Of a DNA stretch of 64,000 nucleotides, positions 15,501 to 46,615 are shown one piece after another (position 1 is the first letter of the stretch; each line of letters opens with the position of its first letter). The stretch spans positions 42,718,001 through 42,782,000 of the forward strand of contig OZ024741.1 of assembly GCA_964016885.1 (NCBI GenBank). The letters are read 5' to 3'. The notes beneath the pieces are model-generated. The model was given only the letters and a program-made list of their open reading frames with translations. It was not told the DNA's origin and searched no databases. The position numbers were made by a program, and so were the translations under genes. Source of the DNA: Eledone cirrhosa (taxonomy: Eukaryota).

Positions 15501-15943
15501 GAATCTAAGATCCCGTTCCAGTCGCCTACTAACACTAAAGAGCGGGACGTTCCAAGAAAGGTCTCCAGACGCCGGAAGAAATCAGGCCGCCCTGCTCCTG
15601 TCGGGGCATAGACGGCCACTAGCCTGAAAGCTTGCCCGTCTCCGCTGGTCACGTCCAGCACCACTAACTTACCCTCTGGGTCCAGGAAGATGGCCCGTAT
15701 GGCGAGATCCAAACCTCTCCGAAAAAGCACAGCAACTCCTCCACCCGATCCAGGACGGCTGGGAGATGCGTACACATCGCAGCCGCCGAAGACCGGTGCG
15801 AAGGCCCGTGCTTCGGAGATTCTGGTCTCGCTGATGGCCACTACATCTATGTTTAGTGAGCTGAGGTCGTTTAGCAGGTGGTACTGCTTCCATGACGACC
15901 CCAAGCCACGCGCATTTATGCTGCCTATTCTGAGTGAGGTCAT
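12526..15943 (-). pseudogene. LINE ORF2 (APE endonuclease-RT-Zn finger), disrupted
   Basis: Pieces 14456..15943 (SINARGL, ISET, VGDWN, SYLDR, TDH), 14001..14525 (LDQSKAFDRVDH, SVRQG), 13302..13985 (YADD) and 12526..13137. Confidence 0.92.
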
Positions 15944-15978
15944 GTTTAAAATAGAGTGGAAAAGATGGGAAAGACCAC

Positions 15979-18075: not shown

Positions 18076-18677
18076 GTTGTTTTTTGTTTAAAATGAAATT
18101 TTGGGTACAAAACCCCAATAATTGGTTATTTAACCCCGAAGGGCCAAATAACGGACAGGAAGACCCCTCTCACGAGGAGGAGGGTGTCTTTATCAACAAT
18201 TTGGTTCAAGTTTTAAACAATTTACAATTGTTTTAACGGTTAAAAATTACTATACCTTACAGAGCCGAGCCTCCGTCAACCATGGCATTCAATAATAATA
18301 ATAATAATAAGAAGAAGAAGAAGAATAAGAAGAATAATCATGAAATATATTTTTATTGTTTTCTCAAAGAGGGGAAAAATAGTCCTCCTGATCCATCTCA
18401 ATCAGAGCCCCCAATCTCGGTGGGAAGTAGGAAAGTATCCAAAAACTGTAGTCTCTGCTGAAAGCACACAAGAGACAGATGATGGTGCTAAACCAAGCGA
18501 CGCATTATGTCACCCCGTTCCGCCCCACCACCTCAAATAGCACATAGTGGGATTTGAACTCAAAGGACTGATGCACTGGAGGAGTACTGTATTTTACGGA
18601 TGTCTAACATTTATAGCGTGCTTCCCTCAAATTGTCTAAAGTGTTTGTATAATTGTTTGTATTATTAACACTAAATG

Positions 18678-23955: not shown

Positions 23956-24050
23956 AATAAACGTAATGGAAATTTGACATCTCGTCCATGATTATTATTA
24001 TTATTATTGCTGGCCTTGTGCCAAAAGTAGAAACAATTATTATTACTATT

Positions 24051-27000
24051 GGTCTAATCGGACGTCTTTTGCTCGCTCCCAGTAAGTCGCTTTATTTACC
24101 CGTTATAATTATTTGTTAAATTTGTCTCACTGTGACAGGGATATAAGCCCATGGGCTTTGCCCTGTGAAGGAGGAAGTATAATATTTGGGCCTTTTGGCC
24201 CAAATATTTGAACAATATTTGAACATTTTACTTTTGAAAATAAAAAAAATAAAAAAACATTGAGAGGAGGGTTAGTGAAATTCACCAAACACCACCACAA
24301 ACAACGTGGACAAAGACAACAACACTGAGAACACTAATTTTGACAAAATTACCACACTAACTACAACAATAACAGCGTCAACCAAAACAGAGACACAGAG
24401 AAAAATGACAACAAATGCAACAACGATATTAACAAGAAAATAAACAACGACAACACCAACAGCAACATTACAAATTGCATCGAAAACAACAACAACGTTG
24501 GCACCAAAAACACAACCAACTACAACAGTGATAACAGCAACACCAACAACACCGTTTGTTGCAGTAGCCACAGCAACAGCACCAACAACAAGAGCAGCAG
24601 TAGCGGCAGCAATAATAGTACTGCTGTAAAAGGGGCCACTTCTTTCGCAGGTGTGGCCCGAAATATAGAGACATTGCTAGTCACGGAGGAGGAGATGGCA
24701 GTCGCAAGAACCATGGTGTCAAGAAACGACAATAGAGTTCCCTGAAACCTCCAACCGATTTCTTCAAAGACCAGCAGCTGTGTACGGTGACATACCGCAC
24801 CGTAAGCAAAATGTCACATCGCGTGGAGAGCGCCACGGAGGCTAAAATCCAAAAGGCCTTGGGGTGAGTCTTGGCGCGCAAAACCCACATCACCCGAGAC
24901 AAAAAGTACGCCACAGTAGATGTACTTTTCGCCAACCCCCAAGAAGCAAAGTCTCACTTTTTGGAAACCCTAAAGAGTGAGGAGATAGTCTTGGTGCCCT
25001 CCTACCGCTGGCAGAAAATTGTGAGGGTCAAAGTGACCGAGGTCCCGCCTGACGTGCCCATACCTTGGCTGGCCGCCTCTGTACTGGCTGGAATCGATGA
25101 GAAGACCACCATACTGCAAATACAGAGAATGGGAAGAGAGAACTGATCAGGAATAGGCATGAAAATGCTAATACAGACTGACGACAGTGCATCGAGGCTA
25201 CCCCAGACATCATAGACCTCGAAGAAAGGCTCCAATTCCCTATAAGCGTGGAAGGAAAAGCACCCAACGTGCTATCTCTGTGAAGGCTCTGAGGTGACCC
25301 TTCTGCCCGCAAAAGACAGCCAAGAAGAGGGCCCCTCCTTTCGACGCCTGATCCGCTGCTACCAAGAGCAGGGCAGGCAACAGAAGCAGAAAACCCTTCC
25401 ATGGTGAGTAGGAGGGCAACGTTCGTGGCACCCATACCAAAGCCATGGACAACTAAAGCAGCGGCAGCAGTGGCGGCAACACCAACAGTCGGAGTAGCTA
25501 CACCGGCGGTAAAATCGCCGGAGCGGGATACACTACCACCACCAACGGCAGTGGAGCTCATGCCCCTCCCGGACGCCGCGGTGTCCGACATCGAGTGTGA
25601 GGCGGGAGGGAAGTGGCAAACGTCTGCCACAAGAAAAGAAAAAAGAAAAAAAACCCTTAGATTCACGCTCCAAAAGCGAAGGCAGACAAAGAGGGGTAAA
25701 GGCTGCAAGGAGATTTGCAGGAACACCATCACCACCAGCATCACCAAAAACACCAACATCGCAAACACAACAAAACACACACACCCAACAGCAACAACAA
25801 GAAAACAGCAACACAATCACCCCTCCCCCTAAAAAGTACACAGCCATAAACATGGCAAATAAAGAACTCATACAACATATAAAGCAGCCACAGATATCAC
25901 AGAAAAAAACTACTACACCCCACCAACACCAAGGACTCTCCCGACAAACATAAGCATCATTGAACTCAAAATAGAACAGTACAAACTTTTAAAACAAAAA
26001 TTCCCCAACGGAGTTGGAGACTTCAGAGGTCCGGTTACCAAGAGGATATACACTGACATCCTCTTGGAAACACCAATAACCAGCCAAAGGGTCGGTTCTA
26101 CTGTCCCTTCACTACACGATCAAAGTAAGTGATCCTTTCTCACTTGCCCCGTTTCTCATCCAACATGGCCGTATTTAGAATAGGCAGTATAAATGTACGT
26201 GGCCTGGGGTCATATTGGAAGCAGGGTCACCTGCTCAACGACCACAGGTCACTAAACATAGATGTGGTGGCCATCAGCGAGACTAGAATCTCCGAAGCAC
26301 GAGCCCTCGCACTGATCTTCGGCAGCTACGATGTATACGCATCTCCCAGCCGTCCAGAATCGGAGGGAGGGTTGACAGTGCTTTTTCGGAGAGGCTTGGA
26401 TCTCGCCATACGGCCATCTCCCTGGACCCAGAAGGCAAGTCGGTGGTGATGTATGTGACCGGCAGCGAAGGCAATGCTTTCAGGCTAGTAGCCGTCTACA
26501 CATCGACAGGGGCAGAGGACGGCCAGATTTCTTCAGACGTCTAGAGACCTTTCATGGAACGTCCCGCTCTTTAGTGTTAGTGGGTGACTGGAACGGTATC
26601 TTAGATGCACGCTGGGATTATGTGTGGCTAGTAGACAGGGCAGGAGGGTGTACAAGCCTCAACAACCTGTTCAGACGTTTTGAACTGTTTGACAGGTATC
26701 CACGGGATTATCCGAATGTGCCAATGTCGACATGGGCAAACCGCATCGGGTCATCTAGATCGTATTTAGATAGGGTATTCTGTAGGGAAACAGATAAGGC
26801 TAGTGTAGGTTGTCAACAATTTAAATTAGTCGACTACACGGACCACAAATTTGTGATCTGTGAAGTTGACTTAGATAGACTCCATAGGCAAGGGCCCGGC
26901 TACTGGAAGCTGAACGCGTCGTTCTCGGTGCGCAAAGCTTACAGAGACCGGATTAGCGAATTAGTTAAGCGTGCGTTGACGGGTGCGATCGTCAACAACA

Positions 27001-29850
27001 GGTGGTGGTTTACCCTGAAAAGGGCTTTAGAGTAGAATCGATAAGGTTTAGCAAAGGAGTAGTGATAGAGGAAAATAGAGTAGAGGGAGAGTTAGTTAGA
27101 AAGCTAGCAGTGGTTTTCAGGACAGGCATCGTAACCGATGTGCTTGCGGCGAGATTGGCACTCCACCAATTCTTCAACGCAAAGCATGAATGCAGCGTTG
27201 TCAGAGCTAGAGAGCGTGCTCTAAGACACGAGGGGACGAAAGTCGTTCAATGAGCCCGCGTGGTGGAGGCGCGACGTGGCAACAATTCCACAATTCGGTC
27301 TTTGCCTAAAAACGGGCGCATGTTGCTCGAATCCGAGCAGATGTGTGCGGCTTTTCAACAGCGCTTTGCTCAATTGATCGGGAGCGGCGGTGGGCCGGAT
27401 CGGAGTATGGACTTCGATACATACCTCGACGGACTGCCGCGGCTCTCGACGACCGCAGCGTAGTGCTGCAAAAAGCCGGTAACAGCAGTTGAAATACAGG
27501 AAACTATGTCTGACTGCACGAGGGGTAAATCGCTAGGTTTCGATGGTCTGCTCTACGATCTTTATGCCTATATGCCAGACTTGTTCGGCGACCTCTTGGC
27601 AAATGTCTACTGCAACTGGCAGCAGAACTGGAGCATACCCAGTTTTGTGAGCCGGGGAGCGGTGGCGCTGTTGAGAAAAGACCCGAACAAGGGGGACGTT
27701 ATAGACAACTTCAGGCTCATAACTCTGCTAAACGCAGAGTTTAAGATTTTGGCCAAGGTGTTAGCAAAGAGATTGGCGTTTGTCGTCTGTGATTTGGTGG
27801 GAGAAGCGCAGACATGCGCCATTCCGGACAGATCCATTCACGACAACATCCATCTCATGCGATACATTATAGAGAGGGTGGTTAAGGAACCTAGCACGAG
27901 TGGGGCCCTGATCAACTTGGATCAATCTAAAGCATTTGATATGGTCGACCATCGTTACCTGCCTGCGGTCCTCGATGCGGCCGGATTCGGGCCCACTTTT
28001 AAGGGTTGGATCGCTTCGATGTACAGCGACAGCTGCTCAGTTGCGGGGGTGAACGATTACCTGTCGCAGCCGTTTAGAATCGTGCGCTCCGTCCGCCAGG
28101 GTTGTCCCCCCTCGTTCCTCTTGTACGTACTGGCCCTAGAGACGTTACTGCACAAATTGAAAACGATGAGAGGCGTCCCACTTGAACTGGGATGCGGGGG
28201 ATCCGTGTCAGCTTACGCCGACGACTTCACCGTGGTGGTGTCAAGCACCAGACACGTCCAGATGCTCGGCACCGCTCTCAAGGAATACGAAGCGGTGACA
28301 GGAGCAAAGATAAACCAGGAAAAGTCGGTGGGATTGCAACTCGGCACCTAGAGAGGCAAGTCCATGCCGTCCGACTGCGTCGTGGGACGCTAGACGGAAG
28401 GACTGGTTAAATTGCTTGGGGTCTGGTTCGGACCGGACCTCCAGATGGAGAAAAACTGGAACGACGTGACGTGCAGGGTGGCCTCCCTCACCCAGAAATG
28501 GGCTGAGAGGAAGCTGTCCCTGAAAGGCCGGGCGGAGGTGGCGAATGCATACATCGCATCCGTCATCTGCTACCGACTCAACGTCGTCCCTTGCTCCAGC
28601 CCAACTCTCACCAAAATGGAGCGCCTTATCTTCCGCTTTTTGTGGAAGGGACGCGCTCCCATGGTCAGACGATCCATCTGCTGTCAACACCCGTTGCGTA
28701 GAGGACTGGGCATGCCATGGCTGGTGATGAGCAAACATGCGCTGAGGCTGCGACATCTCTGGTGCTTACTTGATGGTGAACAGGTGTGGTCGCCGTTCGC
28801 CAGGCACGTTTTCCCACAGCACATCTCCTTGGCGGAGCTGCAGTCCTGGGTCAGAAAAAGACCGAGGGATAGCGCTTGGAAACTGGAATGTCTCCAAGCG
28901 CTCACCGCCCTCTACCAGCTGGGCACTAGTATCGGTGGAACATCTACCTCGGTGTTCTATAGGGGGCTAGTGGAGGGAAAGAGCGATGACGTTCGCGAGG
29001 AGACCCTGGACGTCGAAGAAGATCAGCTGTTCGCTCTGTTTAAGGGAACTTTCAGACCGGGTCCTATGGACAACTTCCAGAAATCCCTGGCCTGGTAGTG
29101 CTACCGGGGAGCGTTGCCGGTTTGGGATAAGCTCTACAGGCACGGAGGTGCTGTCAGCCGAGCCAATCCGAGATACGCGCAGGGCGACGAAACCGTCCCG
29201 CACGCACTCGTTTAGTGCCCGAGGATTGATGACTTGTGGAGCTATGTTGAACACCTACTGTCGCGTGTAGGCCGGATCCGGTTATTGACTAAGTCCATTG
29301 TGCAGATAGCCCCGCCATCCTCCTTTAAAGAGGAGGAAGGTCAGGCAGTTTACATTTGCCTGGTCGCCATGGCGAAAGAGATTGGGTGGTGGACAAGGTT
29401 GAAAGGGTTGAAGACAGACACTTACCTCTCCGGCCAATCCCTGATTATCTTTTTCAAGTTTCACTTGAAGATGAAAATCAGGGTGGAGAGGCAAGTGCTG
29501 TCTTCTAATAAGTTCGATGAAAGGTGGGTGAAAGTGGCAAGTCTTGTCCGAGTGAACGGGCCCGCTCTGAGTATACGCCTGTAGACTCAGGAGTGGGAAA
29601 AGTGAGAGAGGACGCTTGCCCTGGTGGTCAGGGTAGCCGTGGTCTTTGGTGTGGTTTTCACCACGAGCGACCCTCGGAGGTTTCCCCCTTTTTGGGGAAT
29701 ATTTCTTGTTTGAAATTTTTGATTTCTATCCCGATTTCTATCTTGTTATAACCTATTTACACGACCAAAACCCACATTGTATCGACCTGTACTTTCCTGT
29801 GCCGTCTCTAACGTTTTTCTTTGTGTCAGCCCTTGTGGCCAATAAAGAAA
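24051..29850 (+). mobile_element. Tx1/L1-clade LINE copy B (divergent subfamily), full length, decayed, in (ATT)n
   Basis: ORF1 remnants (RKTHITRDKKYATVDVLFANPQEAK). ORF2 26165-29584 has stops and frameshifts (YADD at about 28214-28225). 3' end CCCTTGTGGCCAATAAAGAAA. Flanks ATTATTATTACTATT and ATTGTTATTATTATT. Confidence 0.92.
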
Positions 29851-29853
29851 ACA

Positions 29854-29885
<32 letters not shown>

Positions 29886-32800
29886 GAATGCCATGGTTGA
29901 CGGAGGCTCGGCTCTGTAAGGTATATTAAATTTTAACCGCTATAACAATTGTAAATTGTTTAAAACTTTAACCAAATTGTAGACAAAAACACCTTCCTCC
30001 TTGTGAGAGGGGTCTTTCTGCTCGTTATTTGGCCCTTCGGAGTTAAATAACCGCTTATTGGGGTTTTGTGCCCAATATTTACTTTAAACCCCAAAAACAT
30101 GGCTACAAAAAAGAATTTTCACAAGTCACTCCCACTCATTCCGTCTTCTTCTTCCTCAATAGTCACCCACAGCAGAGAGAAGATTGTCTCTCTCCCTCCC
30201 TTCTCTAAATGTGTCTCTCTCCCTTCTCTTTCGCAAGCGACGCCAGTAAAGAAAAATAGTTTCCAAAATCACGTGCAAAACGTGGAACATTTCTCCACGA
30301 CGACGACAACGACGAAAAAGGTGTGCCGTAAATACGAAAACCCATTTCATTCGTCTGACGTCATGAATAATAGCAGTAGCAGCCGTAATAACAGAGCAGC
30401 AGCACCAGTGACAAGGAAAACAACAGTAGCAGCCGCAACAGCATCAGCAGCAGCATAAACAACAACAGCATTAGCAGCAACAGCAACAAAAAACAGCAGC
30501 AGCAGCAGCAGCAGCAGCGGCGGCAGTTGTAGTACCAGCAGCAACAACAAAAGTAACAGCAGCTCTGACGACGACAACAACAACAACAACAACAAAGAAA
30601 AACCAATCTCGTTTGCAGGTATCGCAAAGAACATGGAAACCATCCTTATAACAAATGAAGAATTACAGGAAGCAAAGAAGATGGTGACGAAAACCGGACA
30701 CAGAGCAATCTGCAAGGCAGCCGAAACATTTTTCGAAACCCAACAGCACTGTACGGTCACGTACTGTACAGTAAGCACAACATCCCGTAGGGTTGAAAGG
30801 GCCACAGAGGTTCAAATACAAAAAGCCTTAGGGTCTGTGTGGCAGCGGAAAACACTTATCACCCGAGGCAAGAAATATGCCACCGTGGACGTGCTTTTTG
30901 CCACACCCCAGGAGGCAAAGGCTCAATCCTTAGTAACCCTAAGGAGCGAGGAAATGGTGTTGGTGCCCTCCTACTGCGGACAAAAAATTGTGAGGGTCAA
31001 ACTAACCCACGTCCGCGCCGGGATGGCCCCTTCTTGGCTGGCCGCCTCTGTCCTCGTCGGAATCGAGGACAAAACAACTGTACTGCAAGTACAGAAAAAA
31101 GTACGAGAAGATTGGGTCGGCACCTCCATTGAGATGTTAATCCAAACCAACCAGGAGTGCATCGAAGCTATCCCGGATGTGATAGACTTCGATAACGGCA
31201 CTCAACTGCCCATAACTGTTGAGGACAAACGCCCGAAATGCTTTCGCTGTGGATTGAAGACTCACCTCAGGGCCTTCTGCAATGAGAACACCCTGAGAAA
31301 GGAGAAAACCCCCCTCCTTCCCAAACCGGCTCCACTCCTACCAGCAACAGGACAGGCGGCAACCAGGAAGGATAGGTCCGTGGCACCCATACCCACGCCA
31401 CCGAAATCAAGATCAACAGCAGCAGTGGAAGTATTAACAACAACAACAGCAATACCAACTGAAGCTGCAACAGAGACTCCACTGCAAACATCACCAACAA
31501 CAACAAGTGAAAGAGTGGAACTGGTACCCCTCCCCGACCTCACAGAATCAGACATGGGGTGTGAGGTGGGAGAGGGATGGCAAAAGGTCGCAAGAAGGCA
31601 CAAACGCAGAAGCAGCGCATCGTCGCCTTCGAAAAAGGAGGAAAGAAACGAAAAAAAAAGGGTAAAGGCTACTGCAAAAAGACTCACAGCAGCAACACCA
31701 CCAACACCATCACCACCCACACTAGCACCACCATCACCACCGGCGGCAACTCCACCGCAAACAACAACAGCACCTTCAACACCACCACCACAGCACCAAC
31801 ATCGCAAACACAACAAAACACACACACCCAGCAAAAACGACAAGAAAATAGCAGACCCACAACCCACCCCCAGAAAAACAAATGCACAGCAATAAATACA
31901 CACAACAAGAAATTAATGACTTACATAATTGAACACACAGACATTTCACAGCACAACTACATAATACCAGCACCAATCAAAACACCAACTAACATAAGAC
32001 TGCTAAAAATAGCACAGAAACAATACACAAACATTAAAACGAAATTCCCCAACGCAGTTGGTGATTTCAGGGACAAGGAGGAACTATCAATCGAAGAGTA
32101 TATTCAGACATTCTCATAGAAGAGCTGACGACCAGCCGAAGGGGCGATTCAACGGTTCCTTCACCAGACGATCAAGTGAAAAGGGATGGTGAAACCATGC
32201 TTCCTCTGCGAGAAGAAGTAAGGTAAGTGGTCTTTCCCATCTTTTCCACTCCATTTCAACATGACCTCACTCAGAATAGGCAGCATAAATGCGCATGGCT
32301 TGGGGTCGTCATGGAAGCAGGGCCACCTGCTCAACGACCTCAGGTCACTAAACATAGATGCAGTGGCCATCAGCGAGACCAGAATCTCCGAAGCACGGGC
32401 CTTCACACCGATCTTCGGCGGCTACGATGTGTAAGCATCTCCCAGGCGTCCTGGATGGGGTGGAGGGGGTCAGTGCTTTTTCGGAGAGCTTTGGATCTCG
32501 CCATACGGGCCATCTTCCTGGACCCAGAAGGTAAGTTGGTGGTGCTGGACGTGACGAGCGGAGAAGGGTACGCTTTCAGGTCAGTGGCCGTCTATGCCCC
32601 GACAGGAGCAGGGCCGCCTGATTTCTTCCGGCGTCTGGAGACCTTTCTAGGAACGTCCCGCTCTTTAGTGTTAGTGGACGACTGGAACGGGATCTTAGAT
32701 GCACGCTGGGACTGTGTGGGATTAGCGGATAGGGGAGGAGAGTGCAAGAGCCTCACCAACCTGCTCAGGCGTTTTAAACTGTCTGACAGGTACCGATTGG

Positions 32801-35045
32801 ATTTCCCGAATGTGCCAATGTGGACTTGGCCAAATCGTATCGGGTCATCCAGATCATATCAATATAGTCAGCTACACGGACCACAAATTCGTGATCTGTG
32901 TGCTTCATTTAGATAGGCTTCATAGACGAGGACCTGGTTGCTGGAAGCTAAACGCGTCCTTACCAGCGCGCAAGGCCCACAGAGACCGGATTAGCGAACT
33001 AGTTAAGCGGGCGTTGACGGGGGCCATCGTCAACAACAAGTCGTGGTTTGAATAGAGTCCATTAGGTTTAGTAAGGCTTTAGCTATAGAGAGAAATAGAG
33101 CAGTGGCAGAACTAGTTAGAAAATTAGACGAGGCGCTTAGCAAAGGCATCGAGACCGACGTACTTGCGGCGAAATTGGCCTTTACCAATTCATCAATGCA
33201 AAGGACGAAGGCTGCGTTGTCAGAGCTAGGGTGCGTGCTCTCAGACACGAGGGGACGAAAGACGTTCAATGGGCCTATGTGGCGGAGGCGCGTCGTGGCA
33301 ACAAAGCCACGATCCGGTCTTTGGTGGACCACGACGCGCGCATGCTACTCGATCCCGGGCAAATGTGTGAAGCTTTTCAGCGACACTTCGCTCAACTGTT
33401 TTGGGGCAGCGGTGGGCCGGATTGAGGGATGGACTATAGTGTCTACCTCAACGGACTGCCGCGGCTCTCGGCCACTGACGCGAAAAGCCGATAACAGCCG
33501 CTGAAGTAGGGGAGGCAATGACTGGCTGCACAAGGGGTAAATCGCCTGGTTTCGATGGTCTGCCCTATGAATATTACGTACAAATGCCAGACTTGTTCGG
33601 AGGCTTCTTGGTGGACGTCTACTGCAACTGGCAACAGAACGGGAGTATTCCCAGCTCTGTGAGCCGAGGTGCTGTGGCGCTGCTGAGAAGGGATCCGAAC
33701 AATGGGGATAACATAGATAATTTCCGGCCCATAACTCTGCTAAACACAGAGTTCAAGATTTTGGCCAAGGTGCTAGCAAAGAGGTTGGCGCTTGTCGTTA
33801 GTGGTCTGGTGGGAGAGGCGCAGACATGCGCCATTCCCGACAGATCCATCCACGACAACCTCCACCCCATGCGATACATCGTAGAGAGGGTAGCTAGGGA
33901 ACCTGGCACGGATGGGTCCTTGATCAATTTAGATCAGTCGAAAGCCTTCGATAGGGTCGACCATCGTTACCTAGCGGCAGTCCTGAGGGCGGCTGTCTTT
34001 GGGCCCGTCTTCAGAGGCTGGATCGCTGCCATGCACAGCGATATCTGCTCTGTAGTGAGAGTGAACGGTCACCTTTCGGAACCGTTCAACATCATGCGCT
34101 CGGTCCGCCAAGGATGTCCCCTCTCCTCCCTCTTGTACGTATTGACTCTCGAGCCATTACTGCACAGACTGAAGACGTTGAGGGGCGTCCCGCGCGAACT
34201 AGGATGCAGAAGATCCGTGTCAGCATATGCGGACGATGTCACCGCTGTGGTGTCGAACGCCAAACACATCGAGGCGATCGGCACTACACTAAGAGAATAC
34301 GAAGCGGTGACAGGAGCAATGATCAACCAGGAAAAGTCAGTGGGCCTGCAGCTCGGCACCTGTAGAGGCAGATCCATACCGTCCAACAGCGTTGTCGGAC
34401 GCTGGACGGACGGACCGGTTAAATTGCTAGGGGTCTGGTTCGGTCCAGACCTCCAGACGGACAAAAACTGGGACGAGGTGACGAGCATGGAGGCTTCCCT
34501 CACCCAGAAATGGGCGGAGAGGAAGCTATCCCTGTAAGGTCGATCGGAGGTGGCTAACGCGTACATCGCGTCTGTCATCTGCTACCGCCTGACCGTCGTA
34601 TCTTGTCCTAAGCCCCGCCTAACTGCGCTGGAGCGTTTGCTCTTTCGCTTTTATGGAAGGGACGCGCTACGATGGTCAGGCGGTCCATCTGTTGTCAACT
34701 CCCGCTACGTGGAGGGCGGGACATGCCGTGGCTGATGATGCGCAGGCACACGCTCAGGCTACGACATCTCAACCTCTTCCTCAACGGTGATCAGGTGTGG
34801 TCGTCTTTTGCTAGACACGTCTTTCCCTAGCTCGTTTCCTTGACGGAGCTGCAGTCCTGGGTCAAGCGAAGACCGAGAGGGAGCGCTTGGAGACTGGAAT
34901 GTCTTCAGGCGCTCACAACCCTCGACCAATCGGGCAATGTGATCGGTGGAAACTCCACCTTGGCGTTCTATAGAGGATTAGTGGAGGGGAAGAGCGACGG
35001 CGTACCTGGGGGAACTCTAGGCGTCGACGAAAATGAACTAGCCAG
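29886..35045 (+). mobile_element. Tx1/L1-clade LINE copy C (same subfamily as A), 3'-truncated
   Basis: Starts right after (TTA)n 29853-29885 with the same 5' end as A. ORF1 30099-32226 is frameshifted (CFRCGLKTHLRAFC). ORF2 begins at 32261 and breaks off after GVDENELAS. Confidence 0.92.
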
Positions 35046-35378
35046 TATATTTAATTTTAATCAAAGGGTTCTCCGGCACAAACCCCTGCTGAAAACTCCC
35101 GCTGAGAATTTTTTCCCTTCGATTTATATGAAATTTAAGCCATACGTAAACGACAAGATATGATGCCTATTCACAAAAGTTTTGAATTGATATTTTGAAA
35201 AAATTATTTACAAGAAACAAAATAAGAATAATATTTAATAATGTAATTTTCATGCATTACATTTTACATCGAGTAATATTGAAATGCAGAGTTTTTCTCC
35301 ATAAATTATATCACTGATTTAAAATCAATCATCATTTTCTTACAACAACAAAAAAATGTGCGCGGGTAATTCGGCTAG
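35046..35378 (+). mobile_element. Possible Helitron 3' fragment abutting the break in LINE C
   Basis: AT-rich segment ending GTGCGCGGGTAATTCGGCTAG followed by T, resembling a Helitron CTAG terminus. No coding evidence. Confidence 0.3.
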
Positions 35379-35412
35379 TATACATATATATATATAGTAA
35401 TAATAATACATT

Positions 35413-35480
35413 TGAAGATCCCGTTAAGGGTGAAAGCAGCGATTATTTGCTTAAACTTTAATCTTTTATTTTAATAAATA
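35413..35480 (-). repeat. Terminal fragment of the repeat found at 54221 and 63700
   Basis: Reverse complement of ATTAAAGTTTAAGCAAAkAATCGCTGCTTTCACCCTTAACGGGATCTTC. Confidence 0.85.
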
Positions 35481-36453
35481 TATATATATATATAAATAAG
35501 TAGAATCGAAGTCAGTGTTGCACCATATGATGCAATACTGACTTCGATTCTTCTAAACTATTACACCCTGCACATTACTGCTGCCTTAACTCTGAAATAC
35601 AACCCACACAAGACGGACCTCGTAACAGCATTGCGTGCTACGAACGGAAGGACGCCCGAAACTGTAGTTACACACCTAAATACCCCCCCCCTCTATATAT
35701 ATATGTATGTTGCAACTTGAAAACACAAGGAGACAAAGTTAGGTACTTGTTAATCTATTGTTTTACAATGCAAGCATTGTCCATTGCTGTAAAGATAAAT
35801 CCAGTTCATTAATGTGGAAAAGCAATTCATATCCTTTGTCTTCATTTAGAAACATGTAAATGCATCTCTATAGATGTTTGGGAAATATAATAGGTACATT
35901 GCAACATGCTAAAAAGTGAAGGACCCGACTCTGCCAACATTGACTGATCTCTTCTGAAATATAACCTCTATATTATTCCAAATGCCTCCATTAATAATTT
36001 TAAAAAAAGCCCCCCCCCCCCCCCCAACAAAAACCCAGTGAAATAGTTGAAACAACGAATGAATTTAATATATATAAAGTGATATCAAAATACAATAACC
36101 TTATAGCAAAAAACTGTGAAAGATTGCATTTGACATTTCAGTCTTACCGCAAGTGATGATTTCGTTACCAGAATAGTTTGGTATAATTTCAAGTAAAGGC
36201 AGAAAATCACCACCAACCTAATCTAAAGTTTCAATAATGCTTTTATATTAAGACAAAACATTTAAAGAAACTGAAACACATCTACTCAATATTGTTATCT
36301 GTGTTCATGAAATAATACATGTTTTCTGAGTTGCTGATATCAATGTGAAAAATTAGTGAAAAATTAGCGAAAAGGAGAAAATTTATTCTGAGGGAAAGAA
36401 GAATCTGAAAATACTCCACCCTGACTGGACCTTTAGATTTGTACCTGTGATAA

Positions 36454-38185
36454 CACCGTGTAACATATTTTTTGTTCCTCGGTTCTAAGTGTCATTTACT
36501 GGTTTGTTATATCCCATTATTTAAAAAAAAATACTATTATTTAATCAGAAGCTTGGATTTGTGGTCAGGAGTTTGATATTTCGAAATTTTCATATTTTTC
36601 AAGAAAAAGCACATTGTTTTTTAATTTATCAGTTCATATAATTAAATCAACAGAGTATATATTTATTTTATTACGCAAGCTTATCAAAAGAAAAAAGTAA
36701 AAACAAATAACCCTTATAAAGCAACTTATACACGTCATAAATAACTGGATTTCCTGGATTTGTGGTTGTAGTCCAGGTCGCATTCCCGCACTAGGCCCCA
36801 GATATAGTCCTCCATCATTTTTTAATTGTAGTGGCCCTGGTACCTTCGCTCTATCTCTTTCACATCTTGGTAGAATCGTTCGCCTTGTTCTTTGAGTAGG
36901 CGCCCATATTGTCCTTGAATTCTTCCAGGTGAGCGTCCAGCATATGGAGTTTAAGCGACATCCTGAATCCCATGGCGCCAAAAGCCTTTATCAGATCCGG
37001 CACCAGTTGCTGGTAGTTTTCAGCCATGTAGTTTCACAGGAAGCCCTTAACAACTGCTTTAAAACAGTTCCATGCTGTTCTCTCAATCCTATTGAGCTTA
37101 TTGGAGAACGCGGTAGACTCAAACACCTTCTTTATCTGAGGTCCAACAAAAATTCCACCTTTGATTTTGGCCTCAGATAACTTGGGGAAAACTCAAGAAG
37201 GTACTTAAAAGCGGGTGATTCTTGGTTGAGAGCCTTCACAAACTGCTTCATCAAGCCCAACTTAATGTGCAGTGGCGGCATGAGCACAATCCTGGGATCA
37301 ACCAGTGGCTCCCACATGACGTTCCGGGTCCCAACTACAAATTCTGTTCGCTGCTCCCAGTTCTTTCTTTTGTAGTGGTCAGAGGTGGCTCTGCTGTCCC
37401 AAAGGCAGAGGAAGCATTTGAATTTGATAAAGCCTCCTTGGAGTCCAAGCAGGAAAGCCACCATCTTGAAGTCTCCAATGATTTCCCAATTGTACTGGTT
37501 GTATTGCAGAGCTTCCAAGAGGACTTTCACACTGTAGTAATCTTCCTTCAGCCAGATTGAATGAGCTAGGGGCAGTGTCGGGAACTTGTTTCCATTGTGG
37601 AGAAGGACCGCCTTCAAACTTGTGGTCTATAAATAGGCACAAACGGCACCCCAATAACGTCAAACAGTCCAGGCACGTCATGGCAGAAGCAGAGGCCATC
37701 CCTAAGAGTGTAAAAGCCTGAGAAAGGTTCGTAGCGACATCTCTGACTTGTCACCTGCACTTCCTCCTTGACGAAGTTCCACTGCATCATCCTGGAGACG
37801 AATAGCTCTGCATTGACTTCTTTTTGGTTTGGGAAGTGAGGAACTTTTTCTGGTACCCCAGTATCAATAAATCTCTTTAATCCACTTTTTAACAATTTTA
37901 TACTTTATTGCACTTTTATAATTTTCTTTAGGTATTACTTTTTATTTTAAAATTTTAATTTAACCTGAAACATATATAAAAAAATCATTTAACATAAGCA
38001 AATTAAACTTACATACAACGTCAAAATCCAGCATAGAAATAATTCTAGTGAATAGCTTAGAATTTTTACAAACCCAAACTTTTAACTGTTTAATAGCACT
38101 TTTTAATTTATTTATTTGGGACCTAAGAAACACAAAAAAGTGATTACAAGCCAGGAACAGAAAAAATTCTTTTTGTTACACGGGG
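36454..38185 (-). mobile_element. Chapaev3-type (CMC superfamily) DNA transposon, internally deleted, transposase pseudogene
   Basis: Termini CACCGTGTAACA and TGTTACACGGGG; 3-bp TAA duplication at 36451-36453 and 38186-38188. Transposase motifs KAVLLHNGNK, GDFKMVAFLLGLQGG, CFLCLWDSR and PPLHIKLGLMKQFVKAL, plus EQGERFYQD near 36865-36895. Confidence 0.85.
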
Positions 38186-38679
38186 TAATTGGAGATCTTA
38201 GATATGTTACTAACTGTCTCAGTACAACCCTTGACAACCTGGGCTTCGCAGAACTAGAAAAGGCACAGCTAGTTCGGAAGTTGTAAGAAAAATTAATTAA
38301 CAGATCTGTAAAATATGTAAACATTTAATAAATGCAGTATATAGTAACTGTATATACACATGTATGGATACAGAATCATGCACGGCTACACATATAACTC
38401 AATTCATACAGATCCACACATATAATAACGTAATACCGTCACACACACATAGACACACACGCACACGCACACAAACACATACACACACAAACCCATTTAC
38501 AGACATACATACGTACTTCCCTAGTTGATGTCGAAATTACAATGAAAAAATATTGTTTTTATGTTAGAAATCGACTCCTCTATTGTTGAAAATTCAGGAA
38601 ATATAACCAGAACATGCATGCACGCACATGCATATCTATAAATCAAATGTCTATCTATCTATCTATCTCTCTCTCTATC

Positions 38680-41600
38680 AGACGTGTGTCACTTCGCGGA
38701 GAAGTTTCCGTTAATTTATGTAAGAAAAAAACGTGAGTTTTTAGTTAAATTTTATATCATTGTGTAACTTGACCACCCGTCTGGACCTTCAGGTGGTGGG
38801 TCAACTCATTTTCGCCCCCTACAGGGGCGGAATATCCATTTAAAAAATTTTTCTCCATCGAATCTTGGAAAAAATATTCTAAAATGTTGATTACGTTATG
38901 AACGCTGCGTCCAACGATAATGGTGGTGGAGAGGCGGTAAGACTACAAAGCTCGCAGTCAACAACGTCTTCTTCACTAGATACTATAGAGATGGAAAGAC
39001 AAAAATGAACATAAAAAAACGAATTCATATCCAAACAACACAAATGACACCAAACAGTTCAATGACAACAAAAATAACAGCAAAACCAATAATGATGATG
39101 AAAGCAACAATGATAACAACAACAAAGTAAAAAATAAAGACAACGCCAACAACAACACCAAGGAAAATATGGATGATACCAACATCGGTGACAACAAGAA
39201 TAACAACAACAATAACAACAATAATGACAACACCACCAATACGGATTCCACAAAGAAACCAAAATCTCCTTTGCAGAGAAAGTTCAAAAGAAAGAAGAAT
39301 TGATATATCTCGACATAACAAATGCTGAACAACTTTTAAAGGACGCTAAGAGATATGTCACTTTCGAAAAAAATGGTTCTTTCAGCATCAATTCTCCGGT
39401 AGAAATTCGCAAGGAAACTGCTCTCAAAACGATAGTTTTTAGGACAGTTTGCAATTCTACCCGAAAACCAGTCCAATTGTCACAGAAAGAAATTGAACTG
39501 GTTTTCAAAAATTCAATGAATGATATTGTATTCATTCAAAGAAGCAAACTTTTTGGGAGTATGTCGGTACTCATGAAGGATCAATTGACGGCCCAAAATT
39601 ACTCTGTGTCGCCAATTGTATCCAACCTGTACACCTTTTTCCCTACATACATGGGAAAAAGGACACAAAAGATCAGAATCACAAGTGTCACACCAAAGGT
39701 GAACATATGGTGGATACTGTGCGGCTTCATCAATTTTGATGAAGACAGAATACTGTCAGTAGGAAAGTCCCACAGAGATGTATTCAATGGGACTAGCATT
39801 GAAGTTCTGGTGCAAATGAGCCCAGAGCGAATAGCTATGATCCCACAGCGTGTACTCCTGGACGGACTCACCTACATAAACCTTTTGGTTGAGGGTAGGC
39901 GGCCTTCATGTTACCATTGCTTTAGCAGGGATCACCTGAGGGCTTCCTGTCCTAAACTAATGAACCAAAAAAAGGCTCTTCTGCCAACACTCATCAAAAC
40001 AATACAACCACCAACACCACCACAACAACAACAACACCAACACACAAAAATAACCACAACAAACACAGTCCCACCCAACCCCACTCCACCTAAAACCACT
40101 GCAAAATCACATACAGACACAACAGCTCCCCAAGACATACCCCTCCCCAATCACACAGACGATACAACAGATGAGGCTATCTCGCCATCACCCAGTGAAG
40201 ACGAGGGAGAACCCCATCGCTCGAAAAGAAAGAATAGACATCACAAAAGCAAAAAACCAGCAAACACTACCACAAACATACAACCACCAACACAAACAAC
40301 AAAAATATCACAAACAAAACCCCCCACCTCCTGAAAACAAAATACCTACAACAAAACGAAAGCACACACAAGAACTACAGACAAAAACAAACACAACACA
40401 AGAAAATTACACTTACACTTACATAAACACTGAAAAAAAAACACTAATGGAGACCATCACGAACGACCCTTCGGTTTTCACCGAAGGGAAAACTTTCGCC
40501 CACTCTATTAAAAATAGCAAAAAACTGAACCTAAAACTGATTAGGGTCCCTATACAAACTTATAGGTCCCTAAAAGAAACATTTGAGAAGGATGTGGGTA
40601 ATTCCTGCGTGAAACCACTCAACCGCGTCCTTCTCAAATGCCTCCCAACCCCAGACACCCCCATCCCACCAGACCCCACCCCACCAAACATCTGCATCCC
40701 CACCCCGCCGGAAACCACCACCGATCCAGACAACCCCTCCAACACCCCCATGGAAATCGTGCGGCCTGGTTCCCAGGAGGCGAAGGGTGAGTGATCTCTT
40801 TTCCTCTTTTAACTTTTCAGCACCAACATGGCCAATATAAGAGTTGGATGTGTGAACGTACGCGGCCTGGGGATGCCCTGGAAACAGGGCAAACTCTTAA
40901 ACGACCTCAGGTCGCACAGTATGGATGTGGTAGCCATTTGCGAGTCCAGGATCCACGGCGAGCGACAGCTGGCCCCCATCTTCGATGACTTTGAGATCTA
41001 CGCATCTCTCTGTCAACCGGGGGGTGTGGGAGGAGTTGCCATTTTGCTGCGGAAACACCTGGGCCTCGTAACACAGACAGTACATCTAGACCCGGAGGGT
41101 CGACTGGTGGTCCTAGACGTTGACGGTAGTGAAGGTGGAGCCTTCAGGCTGGTGGCCGCATATGCCCCATCCGGGACTCCGCGGCCAGACTTCTTCAAAC
41201 GTCTAGAGACTTTTCTGGGAACGTCCCACTCCTTGCTTTTAGTGGGGGACTGGAATGGAATCCTAGATACACGTTGGGACTATGTGGGAGCAAGTCCCGA
41301 TAAAGGGGGTGTAACAGCCTCAAACAGTTAATCGACCGATTTGACCTGGCCGATAGATATCGACTAGATTTTCCGACTGCGCCACTGTGGACGTGGAGTA
41401 ATCGTAGCGGAACATCTAGATCGTACCTAGATAGGGTTCTAGTTAGAAATAAGGATAGGGACATGTTAAGCTGTCCACAAATGTTCATGGTTGCCTATTC
41501 AGATCACAAACTAGTGACCTGCATGGCCAACCTTGATAGAACCCATAGACAAGGACCCGGCTACTGGAAGATAACTTGTCGTTACCGACAAGCAAAGCCT

Positions 41601-44500
41601 ACAGTAGACGGATTAGCACTTTAGTTAAACAGCACTTGACAGGGGCCATTGTCAACAACAGATGGTGGTACTCTCTCAAGAGGGCAGTTAGATTAGACTC
41701 GATAGTTTTTAGTAAAGAATTAGCGTTAGATAGAAATAGAACCGAGAAGGAACTGGTAGATAAAGTAGAAGAGGCAATTAGAAGTGGCAACGTAGCCAGC
41801 TGCTAGCAACGAGAACGGCCTTGGATCAGTTCTTCGACGCAAAGCACGAGGGCTGCGTTGTCAGAAGCAAAATACGTGCTCAGGGAAACGAGGGAGCCAA
41901 AGCTGTTAGCTGGGCCCGAGTGACGGAGGAAAAAAGTGGCAACATGTCCACGATTCGGTCTTTGAAGGACCAAAACGGACGTGTGATACGTGAGCCGAAG
42001 CAGATGTGTGCGGCTTTTCAGCGGCACTTTGCTCGGCTGTTCGGGGGGAGCGGCGCGCCGGGAGAGGCTATGGATTTTGGTCCATACCTCGACGGCCTAC
42101 CGTGACTATCGGACAGCGAGGCAAAGTTCTGCGAAAAGCTGATTTCAGCCACTGTGATAGGGGACGCGCTGAGCCAATGCGGCAAACGCAAATCTCCAGG
42201 TCTCGATGGTCTACCCTACGGATTTTACGTAGCAATGCCGGACTTATTCTCCGGTCTCCTGGAAGCGGTCTACTGCACTGGCAACAGAACGGGAGAATTC
42301 CCAGTTCTGTAACCGGGGGCGTGGTCACACTAATCAGGAAGGACGAGAATATGGGGGATGACATAGGCAACTTCCGGCCCATAACTCTGCTAAACACAGA
42401 GTTACAGATTTTGGCAAAGGTGTTGGCAAAGAGGCTGGCGCTTGTCGTCGAGAACCTGGTAAGAGAAGCTCAGACATGCGCAATCCCGACCAGGTCCATA
42501 CACGACAACCTCCACCTCATGCGATACATCATAGAGAGGGTAGGGTGTAAACCCGGCTTCGGTGGGGCCCTGATCAACTTGGATCAGTCTAAGGCTTTCG
42601 ATAGGGTTGACCATCGTTACCTGGATGCGGTGCTCGAGGCGGCAGGCTTCGGACCCGTTTTCAGGCGCTGGATTGGTGCAATGCACAACAGCAACATCTG
42701 CTCAAGGATCAAGGTGAACGGCTACCTCTCGGAGCCGTTCCATATTACGCGATCCATTCGACAGGCATGCCCTCTCTCCTCACTTCTGTACGTACTGACT
42801 CTCGAGCCACTACTGCGGAAGCTGGAGCTATTGCAGGGCATCCCTCTGGAACCGGGACTGCGGAAAGCGGCGTCGGCCTACGCCGACAACGTGACAGTAA
42901 TGGTGTCGAGCGCCTCGCAAATCGAGGAAGTCGGCCCCTTACTGAAGGAATACGAAAGTCTCACAGGAGCGAAGCTGAACCGGGACAAGTCCATCGGTTT
43001 GCAACTCGGATCGTGGAGAGGAAGACCGATGCCTTCCGATGGCGTCGTCGGACGCTGGACGGAAGGACCGGTAAAGCTGCTCGGGGTCTGGTTTGGTCCG
43101 GACCTCCAGGTGGAGAAGAACTGGAACGAAGTGACGGCCAAGGTGTTTGCACTCACCCAGAAGTGGGCCGAGTGCAAACTATCCTTGAAAGGTCGAGCGG
43201 AGGTGGCGAACACTTTTATAGCGTCCGCCATCTACCACCGCTTGACCGTCGTGCCTTGTCCAGCCAAAACGCTCGCCAAAATGGAGCGCGCGCTCTTCCG
43301 ATTCCTTTGGAAGAGGCGGGCTCCTTTGGTGAGAAGATCCATCTGCTGCCAACACCCTTCTAACGGAGGGCTGGGGATGCCGTGGTTGACGATGCGCAAA
43401 CACGCGCTGAGGCTGCGGCATCTCTACGTATTCCTCACCGGACAACCGGTGTGGGCCCCGTTCGTGAGGCGCGCCTTCCCACGACTCGTCTTGCTGACCG
43501 AGCTGCAGTCCTGGGTCAAGCAAAGACCGAGGAAAATGGGCGACTGGCACATCGAATGTGCTCCGGCGCTCACAGCCCTCTGGCAGGCGGACCCGGCGAT
43601 CAGTGGAGACTCCACTTCGTCATTATATAGAGGGTTGGTCCGCAGCAAGTGCGACGACGCGCTCGGTGAAACTCTAGGCGTAGAGGAAGATGAACTGGCC
43701 AGTCTGTTCGGTAGGACCTTCCGCCCGGGACCGATGGACAACTTCCAAAAGTCCCTGGCCTGGCAGTGCTACCGAGGAGCTCTACCAGTTCGAGACAAGC
43801 TCTACAGACATGGGCGCCCGGGCAGGGACCCTGCAAAAAAGATCTGTCCGAGGTGCGTGCGAGACGAAGAAACCGTCGCGCACGCATTCATACACTGCCC
43901 GGGCGTCATTGACCTGTGGGGCTATGTGGAACGACTATTGTCGCGGGTGGGACCAATCCAGTTGACCACCGAGTCCATTGTCATGATCAAACCGCCACCC
44001 TCCTTCAAAAAGGAAGGAGAGGCGGTTTTCCTTTGTGTGATAGCTATGGCGAAAGAGGTTGTATGGTGGACAAGGTTGAAAGGGCTGAGGTCAGACACCT
44101 TTCTCTCCGGCCAACAACTGATTCTTTTTTTCAAATACCACTTTGGAAGAAGAATCAGGATGGAGAGAGAGGTGCTGTACCCCAGCAAGTTTTATGAAAG
44201 GTGGGTGAAAGTGGCGAGAATGGCCCGAGTGAATGGGCCTTCTCTCTATATCAGCCTGTAGGTTGAGGAAAAGGAGGAGGAGAGGAAAGGAGTACAAACT
44301 CTTCGTACTCCTGGAGATGAGGGTTGCACATTTTTTTTCGGGGGTATGTGTTACCCATATAAACTGTCTCCCTCTATTGGGGAAAATCGACTAACTTTTT
44401 AAATTCCATTTGTGATAACATTTTACACGTTTTTATTGTATGTAAACTTCCCCCTTTGTATTTGTCCCCTTCTTTTGTGCCCCTGTGGCTAATAAAGAAA
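38680..44500 (+). mobile_element. Tx1/L1-clade LINE copy D (third lineage), full length, inserted in (TATC)n
   Basis: ORF1 pieces 39300..40334 (CYHCFSRDHLRASC) and 40171..40794. ORF2 40828-44261 has frameshifts and YADN in place of YADD. 3' end CCCCTGTGGCTAATAAAGAAA. CTAT repeats at 38650-38679 and 44503-44527. Confidence 0.92.
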
Positions 44501-44537
44501 TATATCTATCTATCTATCTATCTATCTGTATATAAAT

Positions 44538-44767
44538 CTGTAGGTTGAGGAAGATAAACAGAGGGAAGACAGGAACACCTACAAAACGTGTTCCTGGTGT
44601 TGAGGGTTGTTCTATCCACGGGGTGTAAAACAACCCTGCAGTAACGTTCCCCCCTATTGGGGATTTCAATTGTTATTTTATTATATATAGTTTATTGTTA
44701 TTTATTAATGTAAAACACCCACCTTGCAATGTCTCATTTTTGTACGCCCCTGTGGCAAATAAAGAAA
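44538..44767 (+). mobile_element. 3'-UTR-only copy (E) of a D-like LINE
   Basis: Begins CTGTAGGTTGAGGAA, as at the D ORF2 stop, and ends CCCCTGTGGCAAATAAAGAAA followed by GATATCTA. Confidence 0.85.
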
Positions 44768-44898
44768 GATATCTAAGTAAAAATAGATATACAAACGAAA
44801 GACACAGAACTCCGAGGTCGTTGAGATGGACTTGAGCAATTTCGACCCCTATCGACGGTACTGCTGATCCATATATCATCATCATCATCGATTAACGT

Positions 44899-46615
44899 CT
44901 ACGGCACCTCCAGGTATTCCTCACCGGTCAACCGGTGTGGGCCCCGTTTGTGAGGCGAGCCTTTCCCAGACTCGTCTCACTTCCCTGCTTTTAGTGGGGG
45001 ACTGGAATGGTATCCTGGATGCACGTTGGGACTATTCAGGGGCATGTCCCGATAGAGAGGGGTGCAACAGCCTCAAGGGGTTACTCGGCCGATTTGACCT
45101 GGCCGATAGATTTCGACTAGATTTTCCGACGGTGCCAACCTGGTCTTAGTCAAATCGCAGCGGATCATCTAGGTCGTACCTAGATAGATTTTTAGTTAGA
45201 AATAAGGACAGGGACTTTTTAAGTTGTCCAGAAATGCTCATGGTTGGCTATTCAGACCACAAGTTGGTGACCTGCATGGTCAACCTTGATATAACGCATA
45301 GACAGGGCCCCGGTTAATGGAAGCTCAACTTGTCCTTGCCGGCAAGTAGAGCTTACAGGGATCGGATTAGTACGTTAGTTAAGGAACGGTTGACTGGAGC
45401 GATCGTCAACAGCAGGTGATGGGTATCTCTAAAGAGAGAGATTAAAGTAGTCTCGATAGAATTTAGTAAGGTTCTAGCTGCGGATAGGAATAGGAAGGAA
45501 AGGGAGCTAATAGATAGAGTAGAAGAGGCAATTAGAAGCGGCGACATGGCCAGAGTGCTAGCGTCGAGAACGGCTTTGAGCCACTTTTCGACGCGAAGCA
45601 CGAAGGCTGCGTTGTCCGAAGTAAAATACGTGCTCTAGGGAACGAGGGGACCAAAGCTGTTAACTGGGCCCGCGTGACAGAGGCCAAGAGTGAAACTAAA
45701 TCCACCATCCGGTCTTTGCGAGACCAGGATGGATGGGCGATCCTTGAGCCTAAGCAGATGTGTGAGGCCTTTCAAAGGCACTTTGCCCGACTGTTCGGAA
45801 GGGGCGAGGAGCCGGTTGGGAACGTGGACTTCGGTCCATACCTCGACGGCTGCCGCGTCTCTCGGACAGGGAGGCAAAGTCCTGCGAGGAGCCGATTTCG
45901 GCCGCTGAGATAGAGGAAGTGCTAAGCCAATGCGGCAAACGCAAATCCCCGGGTCTCGATGGTCTTCCATAAGAATTATATCTAGCTATGCCGGACTTGT
46001 TCCCCGATCTCCTCGAGGCGGTCTAATGCAACTGGCAACAGAACGGGAGAATTCCTTGTACTGTGACCAAGGGCGTAGTCACGCTAATGAGGAAGGACGA
46101 GAACACGGGGGACGAAATAAGTAACTTCAGGCCCATAACTCTGCTAAACACAGAGTTACAGATGTTGGCCAAGGTACTAGCAAAGAGGTTGGCGCCTGTC
46201 GTGGGCAACCTGGTGGGAGATGCGCTGGACGGAGGGCCAGGTGAAGTTCCTCGGGGTCTGGTTCGGAGCAGACCTCCAGGTGGAGAAGAACTGGGCGGAG
46301 GTTACGAACAGGGTTTTTGCACTGACCAAGAAGTGGGCCAGTTGCAAACTATCCCTGAAAGGTCGGGCGGAGGTGGCGAACACCTATATAGCGTCCGTCA
46401 TCTACTACCGCCTGACCGTAGTGCCTTGCCCAAGGGAAACCCTCGCCAAGATGGAGCGCGCGCTTCCAATTCCTTTGGAAGAGGCGGGCTCCCTTGGTGA
46501 GGAGATCCATCTGCTGTCAACACCCTTCGAAAGGAGGGCTGGGGATACTGTGGCTAATGATGCGTAAACACGCATTAAGGCTACGGCATCTCCACGTATT
46601 CCTCACCGGTCAACC
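44899..46615 (+). mobile_element. Rearranged D-like ORF2 fragment (F): permuted order, RT core deleted, 35-bp terminal direct repeat
   Basis: Late ORF2 (VFLTGQPVWAPF) is joined near 44976 to APE (SLLLVGDWNG). The sequence jumps near 46222 from LVG to RWTEG, and ends in the same 35 bp it starts with. Confidence 0.85.

Follow-up and report, generated by a model that had tools for sequence, protein, structure and literature searches.

In the genome of Eledone cirrhosa, two groups of long interspersed nuclear elements (LINEs) differ strictly in the microsatellite that borders their copies, (ATT)n for one group and (TATC)n for the other. Copies A to E of these elements lie in a stretch of 64,000 nucleotides (nt) on contig 2 (positions 42718001–42782000) of the 3.0-Gb genome, hereafter the window, which was analysed by tandem-repeat finding, self-comparison and direct reading of junctions. 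We consider it very probable that they are LINEs of the L1/Tx1 group, carrying an apurinic/apyrimidinic endonuclease (APE) and targeting microsatellites, with lineages A/C, B and F (the last described below) using (ATT)n and lineage D/E using (TATC)n, and that the target is likely selected when the first nick is made. A preliminary description of the window had proposed different microsatellite targets for the two groups, and both the junction counts and a genome census bear this out, each group showing its own repeat only.

Genome-wide flanks of A/B/C-like and D-like copies, the collection of which the preliminary description had put forward as a check, were read using as queries ~200 nt from the 3' end of each of D, A and B and 200 nt from the 5' end of each of D, C and B, the flanks lying outside every query. 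Each similarity sample consisted of the best-scoring 30 of 693 to 1829 candidates and flanks were read at these loci. For 5' ends, a run of the lineage's own repeat of at least 8 nt was sought in the 40 nt upstream, with other positions in the same loci as controls, while for 3' ends a run of at least 6 nt was sought within 25 nt after AATAAAGAAA. All 30 full-length D-like copies showed TATC/AGACG at the 5' end (the slash marking the junction), and 29 of them had a run of at least 8 nt (control 2/150). The A/C-like full-length 5' ends carried their own repeat in 30 of 30 cases, as ATT/GAATGCC with a single GTT (control 5/150), and the B-like ends showed ATT/GGTCT with a repeat run in 24 of 26 (control 2/130). 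After the 3' ends, the own repeat was found for 29/30 D, 28/30 A and 27/29 B copies (controls 6/150, 11/150 and 14/145, respectively). Overall, an equal run length occurred in 2–14 of the 130–150 control windows per test; the association of each lineage with its own repeat is far above chance.

The register of the junctions is fixed, at the 5' end as given above and at the 3' end as AATAAAGAAA-NN followed by (ATT)n or (TATC)n. The repeat is not confined to 3' ends, as 5' flanks carry it in full-length and truncated copies alike, nor are the flanks mixed between lineages, the repeat of the other lineage occurring after none of the 89 3' ends and before none of the 86 full-length 5' ends. Among the sampled 3' ends, 24/30 D-like and 22/30 A-like belonged to copies truncated within 1.5 kb, and the repeat was detected at the 5' junction of 18 of 24 5'-truncated D copies (control 10/120) and 14 of 22 A copies (control 7/101). 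Inspection by eye of the six truncated D copies that failed revealed two internal deletions, one copy with the repeat beyond the deletion, and three true misses. Because the repeat recurs at truncated 5' junctions, and because some target-site duplications start with ATTAT (see below), the repeats reflect a true choice of target and not only an encoded tail.

The 3' motif that the preliminary description had considered common to the copies is real in A, B, D and E1 (the first of two pieces of E), where it reads CCCTTGTGGTT, CCCTTGTGGCC, CCCCTGTGGCT and CCCCTGTGGCA, respectively, followed in each by AATAAAGAAA; the two bases described there as pyrimidines are not always so. Its shared form CCYTGTGGNNAATAAAGAAA occurs 27,614 times in the genome and the reversed control sequence not at all. 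At the first 30 motif places on contig 1, sampled by position, the dinucleotides TT, CC and TC preceded (ATT)n in 16 of 16 cases and CT or CA preceded TATC in 12 of 14, with no crossed cases. Pattern counts, taken from the forward strand only because those of the reverse strand entered a site twice, gave 5018 occurrences of CW followed by TATCTATC and 4525 of TT followed by ATTATTAT, against 198 of CW with ATTATTAT and 36 of TT with TATCTATC. A mixing of flanks was considered as an explanation of these 198 and 36 crossed counts and rejected, because the type of the 3' untranslated region (UTR) fitted the tail in all 16 distinct crossed loci that were fetched: the eight ATT-tailed loci had an A-like, a B-like or another ATT-type 3' UTR with no match to D, and among the eight TATC-tailed loci seven matched D and none matched A or B beyond the motif. 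The crossed counts are attributable to mutation of the two-base marker and to further ATT lineages that carry GGCT; it is the marker that is leaky and not the lineages.

A nucleotide tree built from the 3'-most 1.3 kb of 61 copies united every one of the 20 TATC-tailed copies, together with one copy bearing another tail, in a single clade, with a support of 100 in the Shimodaira–Hasegawa-like approximate likelihood ratio test, and one change of state suffices. One row of this tree, L184 (the same as L251), had been considered as an ATT copy standing next to the TATC clade; this was rejected when the row proved to be a stack of a short A-like copy and a copy of a further lineage, F. Lineage F (L184, L252–L280) is a third ATT-homing lineage, which ends GTCCCCTACATGTCGGCCCTTGTGGCTAATAAATGAAATC(ATT)n; it yielded 4306 candidates, and its copies are ~94% alike over the 400-nt query. 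An ATT tail was detected by pattern at 25 of 30 F loci (at one of them on a neighbouring A-like copy) and a TATC tail at none; two of the five misses were inspected and each showed a single ATT unit.

A first protein tree, with outgroups of ~43% identity, placed D with a protein named from Argonauta hians, and A, B and C with another database protein. In the protein search the best named relative, at 65% identity, came from Argonauta hians, which suggests an octopod host. A rooted protein tree of 352 C-terminal columns, including six F copies and outgroups, recovered the TATC clade with a support of 100 (all 10 TATC copies, one change of state), lineage F with 99 and A plus B with 92. At its base the branching was ambiguous, F grouping with the TATC clade at a support of 33, and enforcing monophyly of the ATT lineages cost 0.13 log-likelihood units (approximately unbiased test, p = 0.49). 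Of the claim that the two groups are sister lineages, it therefore holds that the TATC copies form one clade, but the ATT copies next to it comprise three or more lineages (A/C, B and F among them). ATT may have been the earlier target, although the trees do not establish which way the switch went.

The elements are APE-type non-long-terminal-repeat retrotransposons, that is, LINEs. They show Pfam matches to Exo_endo_phos, RVT_1 (E 1e-28 to 6e-23) and, in the C-terminal zinc-binding region, zf-RVT (E 5e-6), with the reverse transcriptase (RT) downstream of the APE, self-comparison revealed no terminal repeats, 5' truncation is frequent and target-site duplications are variable. Among solved structures, the APE is matched best by the L1 endonuclease variant 2v0s, with which the catalytic residues N, E, Y, D-N and D align, and an SDH/TDH motif lies near the C-terminus of the domain. 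The second open reading frame (ORF2) is colinear with human L1 ORF2p (query 7–818 against 6–831, E 6e-43), which supports membership of the L1 group. Human L1 has a loose preference for nicking at TTTT/AA and a poly(A) end; its ORF2p has the same APE-linker-RT layout, whereas the elements here have a templated microsatellite end and a strict choice of site. For ORF1 no Pfam family was matched at E 0.01, and upstream frames of up to 643 amino acids (aa) gave a hint of zf-CCHC at E 0.14. An Atlas search returned only generic endonuclease and RT clusters, and the names from protein searches were likewise generic.

The preliminary description had supposed closely related APE domains that would serve as a natural pair for mapping specificity. 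The D and A domains align with no real gaps but are only 61% identical (146–147 matches in 240 residues), and with ~94 differences (93–94 by this count) they are not a minimal pair. Along ORF2, D and A share 61–63% of residues over the APE, 64% over the linker and 73% over the RT, and the lowest 60-residue stretch, at 53%, comprises residues 186–245 at the end of the APE and includes a hairpin and the last strands. This hairpin reads WSNRSGTSRSY in D and E and WTNRIGSSRSY in A, B and C. For comparison, A and B are ~77% identical in the last APE stretch (counted by eye) and 77% identical over an RT stretch of 294 columns, and E is 81% identical to D over APE residues 135–259. These values are compatible with the switch of target having involved the C-terminal end of the APE.

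Insertions into short repeats are informative about the nick. Six A-lineage copies at sites with two or three ATT units (L033, L038, L048, L049, L057 and L059) have duplications of 7–17 bp that start inside the ATT run, some of them with ATTAT. The same loci and others contain a very common SINE-like element (resembling short interspersed nuclear elements) of ~190 bp, of which 61 distinct 3' ends and 25 heads were counted in the fetched loci. Its head is GGGCGGTG(G/A)ATTGGCAGTATCGGTAG and its tail GGCCTTGTGCC(A/T)AAAGTAGAAACA followed by ATTAT(T), and its complete copies (L187, L048, L055, L057, L059 and L220) have duplications of 11–20 bp starting with ATTAT or ATTAAT. Since its tail resembles the LINE 3' end and its duplications start with ATTAT, it is likely to be a non-autonomous partner of the ATT lineages. 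Duplications starting with ATTAT place the first nick immediately 5' of ATTAT, in top-strand terms, such that the bottom-strand primer ends in AATAAT-3' and is complementary to an (AUU)n RNA tail. For the D clade, the fixed NN/TATC junction suggests an analogous nick after GATA; no short-site D insertion informative on the nick was found in the fetched loci.

Every lineage has an AAUAAA polyadenylation signal 6 nt upstream of the repeat, and transcripts would therefore be expected to end within the downstream repeat. Directly before AAUAAAG, all lineages have a small hairpin (window 12281–12296 on the reverse strand, 29828–29840, 44478–44490 and 44745–44757), of the form GCC-C(C/T)TGT-GGC in B, D and F, AACC-CTTGT-GGTT in A and TGGC-CTTGT-GCCA in the SINE-like element; one of its pairs is changed on both sides between lineages, from G-C to A-T. 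Such a hairpin may be a recognition site for the RT.

The landing site is likely chosen by the endonuclease domain and the repeat at the RNA end together. In the mechanism that we propose, a bottom-strand cut by the endonuclease directly behind AATAAT or GATA would yield a primer at the nicked target, to which the RNA would anneal through its 3'-terminal repeat. The endonuclease would itself be sequence-specific, by analogy with other site-specific LINEs, between which endonuclease domains have been swapped. As repeat is left on both sides of each insertion, the landing site would be rebuilt there with every new copy.

The strongest alternative, which we rate as unlikely, holds that the endonuclease has no sequence specificity and that pairing of the RNA 3' repeat with nicked or frayed repeat DNA alone picks the target, so that the switch was a change of tail. 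Each lineage does end in a templated tail made of the unit that it targets, at a constant register behind AATAAAGAAA-NN, tail and target always agree, the duplications at short sites start exactly where pairing of the tail would, and the endonuclease hairpin differs at only about three positions between the classes. Against it, the first nick falls at ATTAT even where the repeat is only 5–6 nt long, which a random nick would rarely meet, and between the classes, but not within a class, ORF2 diverges most in the C-terminal third of the APE. Specificity borne by the endonuclease is also the view published for the group in the accessible text of PMC4494074.

That the repeats are only element-encoded 3' tails, with random insertion and with the 5' repeats being the tails of older neighbours, is very improbable and already contradicted. 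The tails are indeed templated and variable in length, and in each lineage 11 to 14 of the 26 to 30 full-length copies sit behind the tail of an older element, but in the other half the repeat is present although the preceding 120 nt contain no further element, copies with widely varying truncation points bear it too, and the short-site duplications show that ATTAT was in the target before insertion; moreover, landing in an older tail is itself a choice of target. Passive accumulation, in which copies insert anywhere and survive mainly in microsatellite-rich, gene-poor DNA, accords with a window very rich in simple repeats but is scarcely credible, being already contradicted by junctions that are base-exact and in register in 84 of the 86 full-length copies and by the restriction of each lineage to its own unit despite abundant (TA)n, (AC)n and other repeats nearby.

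Several observations weigh against the main explanation, specific insertion into microsatellites. Of the full-length copies, 11/30 D-like, 14/30 A/C-like and 14/26 B-like ones had an older LINE or SINE 3' end in the 120 nt before them, and part of the 5' repeat signal is stacking on such older tails. Three of the 22 usable 5'-truncated D copies (L003, L016 and L024) lack the repeat at the 5' junction, eight of the 22 A-like truncated junctions failed the automatic test, and two of the 14 D-type motif places on contig 1 bear other tails. The similarity samples are biased towards young copies, and the positional sample covers only 30 places. Finally, ORF2 is interrupted in every one of 20 full-length copies fetched (L151–L170; 10 D-like and 10 A/C-like), with longest pieces of 830 and 901 aa, yet the 3' end of D, its last 203 nt, is matched with 100% identity at 42 places in the genome.

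The coordinates of the copies in the window and of their flanks are given in Table 1. The features reported by the preliminary description are present and its account of copies A–E and their flanks is confirmed, small corrections of coordinates aside: within the span of 24036–44775 that it gave, the body of B starts only at 24051, and A lies outside it. The junctions show (ATT)n on both flanks of A and B and at the intact 5' flank of C, as had been described, and D stands between (TCTA)n, with a final TATC, upstream and (TATC)6 downstream, in agreement with the (CTAT)n-type flanks noted earlier. The D-like fragment E said to follow the tail of D is there, with its own TATCTA tail, but it consists of two pieces, E1 and E2.

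Table 1. LINE copies in the window and the repeats at their ends (positions within the window)
Feature	Position	Strand	Description
A 3' tail/target	12247–12269	-	ATTATTATCATTATTATTATTAC; sequence after the end of A, ATTATTATCATTATTATTATT
Copy A	12270–18290	-	Full-length ATT-lineage LINE, frames broken
A 5' flank	18291–18338	-	(ATT)/(CTT) repeat, last bases ATTATTATT directly abutting the element
B 5' flank	23991–24050	+	(ATT)6 at 23991–24008; SINE-like piece at 24009–24035; ATTATTATTACTATT (ATT repeat) at 24036–24050
Copy B	24051–29852	+	Older ATT-lineage LINE, 80% identity to A
B tail/target and C 5' flank	29853–29885	+	ATTGTT(ATT)9
Copy C	29886–35046	+	A-like LINE, 5' end intact, directly after the repeat of B
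D 5' flank	38650–38679	+	(TCTA)4, then CTCTCTCTATC; CTCTCTCTATC / CTCTCTATC; final TATC abuts the element
Copy D	38680–44502	+	Full-length TATC-lineage LINE; 3' end CCCCTGTGGCTAATAAAGAAATA
D 3' tail/target	44503–44527	+	(TATC)6; with TGTATATAAAT, the 5' flank of E1
E1	44538–44769 (repeat to 44775)	+	5'-truncated 3' end of a diverged D-clade family; CCCCTGTGGCAAATAAAGAAAGA, then TATCTA
E2	44973–46615	+	Rearranged D-clade fragment; D 41222–42460 joined to 43053–43447; 81–85% identity to D

By self-comparison, nucleotide identities are 91–93% between A and C, 80% between A and B, and 73–74% between D and A, B or C. Copy A starts with GAATGCCATGG (GAATGCC after (CTT/ATT)n) and ends with CCCTTGTGGTTAATAAAGAAATC, also written AATAAAGAAATC, before (ATT)n, and its APE is 93% identical to that of another A-like copy over 260 aa. 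The first bases of B are GGTCTAATCGGACG and the last CCCTTGTGGCCAATAAAGAAAAC (also written AATAAAGAAAAC), and the SINE-like piece in its 5' flank is a 27-nt 5'-truncated piece of the tail of the ATT-tailed SINE-like element. Copy C is 3'-truncated, its homology ending at ~35046 in the self-comparison. Copy D has pieces of ORF1, an APE from 40828, and an RT with zf-RVT within a 755-aa frame at 41994–44261. E2 contains stop codons and lacks the 3' end and tail; it is bounded by two copies of one D-like stretch, at 44895–44935 and 46575–46615 (CTACGGCA(C/T)CTCCA(G/C)GTATTCCTCACCGGTCAACC), and is therefore rearranged and not simply truncated. Between 0.61 and 0.91 of the words sampled from the 3' region of D (43900–44502) were found in six public runs from three studies with three organism codes, all stored as contigs and none recorded as RNA.

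Stacking of copies is visible within the window, where C lies in the tail of B and (TATC)6 is common to D and E1. On contig 10 of the genome (G000, ~14060484–14061246; L009–L011), at least three 262-bp 5'-truncated D 3' ends are arranged head to tail at a spacing of 280 bp, each followed by a short (TATC)n, an arrangement that could stem from repeated insertion or from tandem duplication. A hot spot of 5' truncation was observed at the element's own CTCTCTATATC (window 44241–44250, D position ~5560), shared by the start of E1 at 44538 and by L001, L009–L012 and L018. As CTCTCTATATC resembles the target unit, the hot spot suggests that the cDNA end would join the repeat by microhomology.

As far as the accessible parts of the cited papers go, the Tx1 clade is known for target preference, and in teleost fishes Kibi targets (TC)n and Koshi (TTC)n (PMC4494074; PMC3812793), targets which the preliminary description had quoted as they are printed in PMC4494074. 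Kibi and Koshi, of the Tx1 group, resemble the present elements, probable members of the L1/Tx1 group, in being microsatellite-specific APE LINEs in which related families use different units, and they differ, on a comparison of descriptions only, in the units themselves, which here are (ATT)n and (TATC)n. Crocodilian Tx1 families (the Tx1-1_Crp group) prefer the microsatellites (TTCC)n and (TTTC)n and were considered target-specific if at least 20% of the flanks held the target (PMC4494074), whereas the figure here is 80–100% of junctions. Waldo and Mino, of the R1 clade in insects, are APE-type microsatellite-specific LINEs as here, but of another clade and with other targets, (ACAY)n and (AC)n (PMC3812793). 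Families named L1-Tx1 are present in octopus genomes and were recently active in Octopus vulgaris, but the accessible text of that report does not contain the word "target" and cannot link them to the copies described here (PMC13282606). Neither Tx1 elements specific for (ATT)n or (GATA/TATC)n nor a preference of octopus Tx1 for particular targets came up in a literature search whose range ended short of Repbase and Dfam entries and of Figure 3 and the supplements of PMC4494074. Such elements may already be described in those sources, and the figure, which names the repeat units of Tx1 families with known targets, may list further units.

Dong targets (TAA)n (PMC3812793), the same duplex repeat as (ATT)n, and its clade, R4, is one of those with a restriction-like endonuclease (PMC4640811). 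The elements described here carry an N-terminal APE and have only the duplex repeat in common with Dong. In R4 elements the restriction-like endonuclease follows the RT, towards the C-terminus. A different LINE, oppositely oriented, directly borders these (ATT)n tracts at L172 (1633–3020, reverse strand) and also at L034, L047, L053, L071, L072, L134, L143, L161, L177, L179 and L198. The C-terminus of its protein has a CCHC motif, a weak match to the R2 C-terminus (E 0.013) and a zf-RVT match (E 4e-4), and it is probably a Dong/R4-like element that uses the other strand of the repeat. Within the window (7252–7400, reverse strand), (ATT)22 directly follows a short repeat ending GTGCGTCTTCTTCCCTT. 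In the flanks of L128, L133 and L136, too, (ATT)n comes after this ending, which marks the repeat as another ATT-tailed family.

A wider picture can be offered only tentatively. It is that of a large and recently active L1/Tx1-type radiation, numbering over 27,000 3' ends and accompanied by an ATT-tailed SINE, which would home by a matched pair made up of the RNA 3' repeat and the endonuclease's C-terminal part. An alteration in this pair would have produced the (TATC)n clade from (ATT)n ancestors, and insertions would rebuild and lengthen their landing pads and so be a main source of both microsatellites in the genome.

Tx1 sister families with differing repeat targets have been known since Kibi and Koshi, and what is added to the microsatellite habit known from fish and crocodilian elements is two landing sites, (ATT)n and (TATC)n, and not a new kind of mechanism. 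A single genome here holds abundant young families with two strictly kept microsatellite targets and several independent lineages for one of these targets, and a likely SINE partner has duplications from which the nick site can be read with single-base precision. This provides material for examining sequence recognition by APE-type LINEs, including which of the two, RNA tail or endonuclease, is decisive, and it may help to explain how microsatellites are seeded and extended by retrotransposons.

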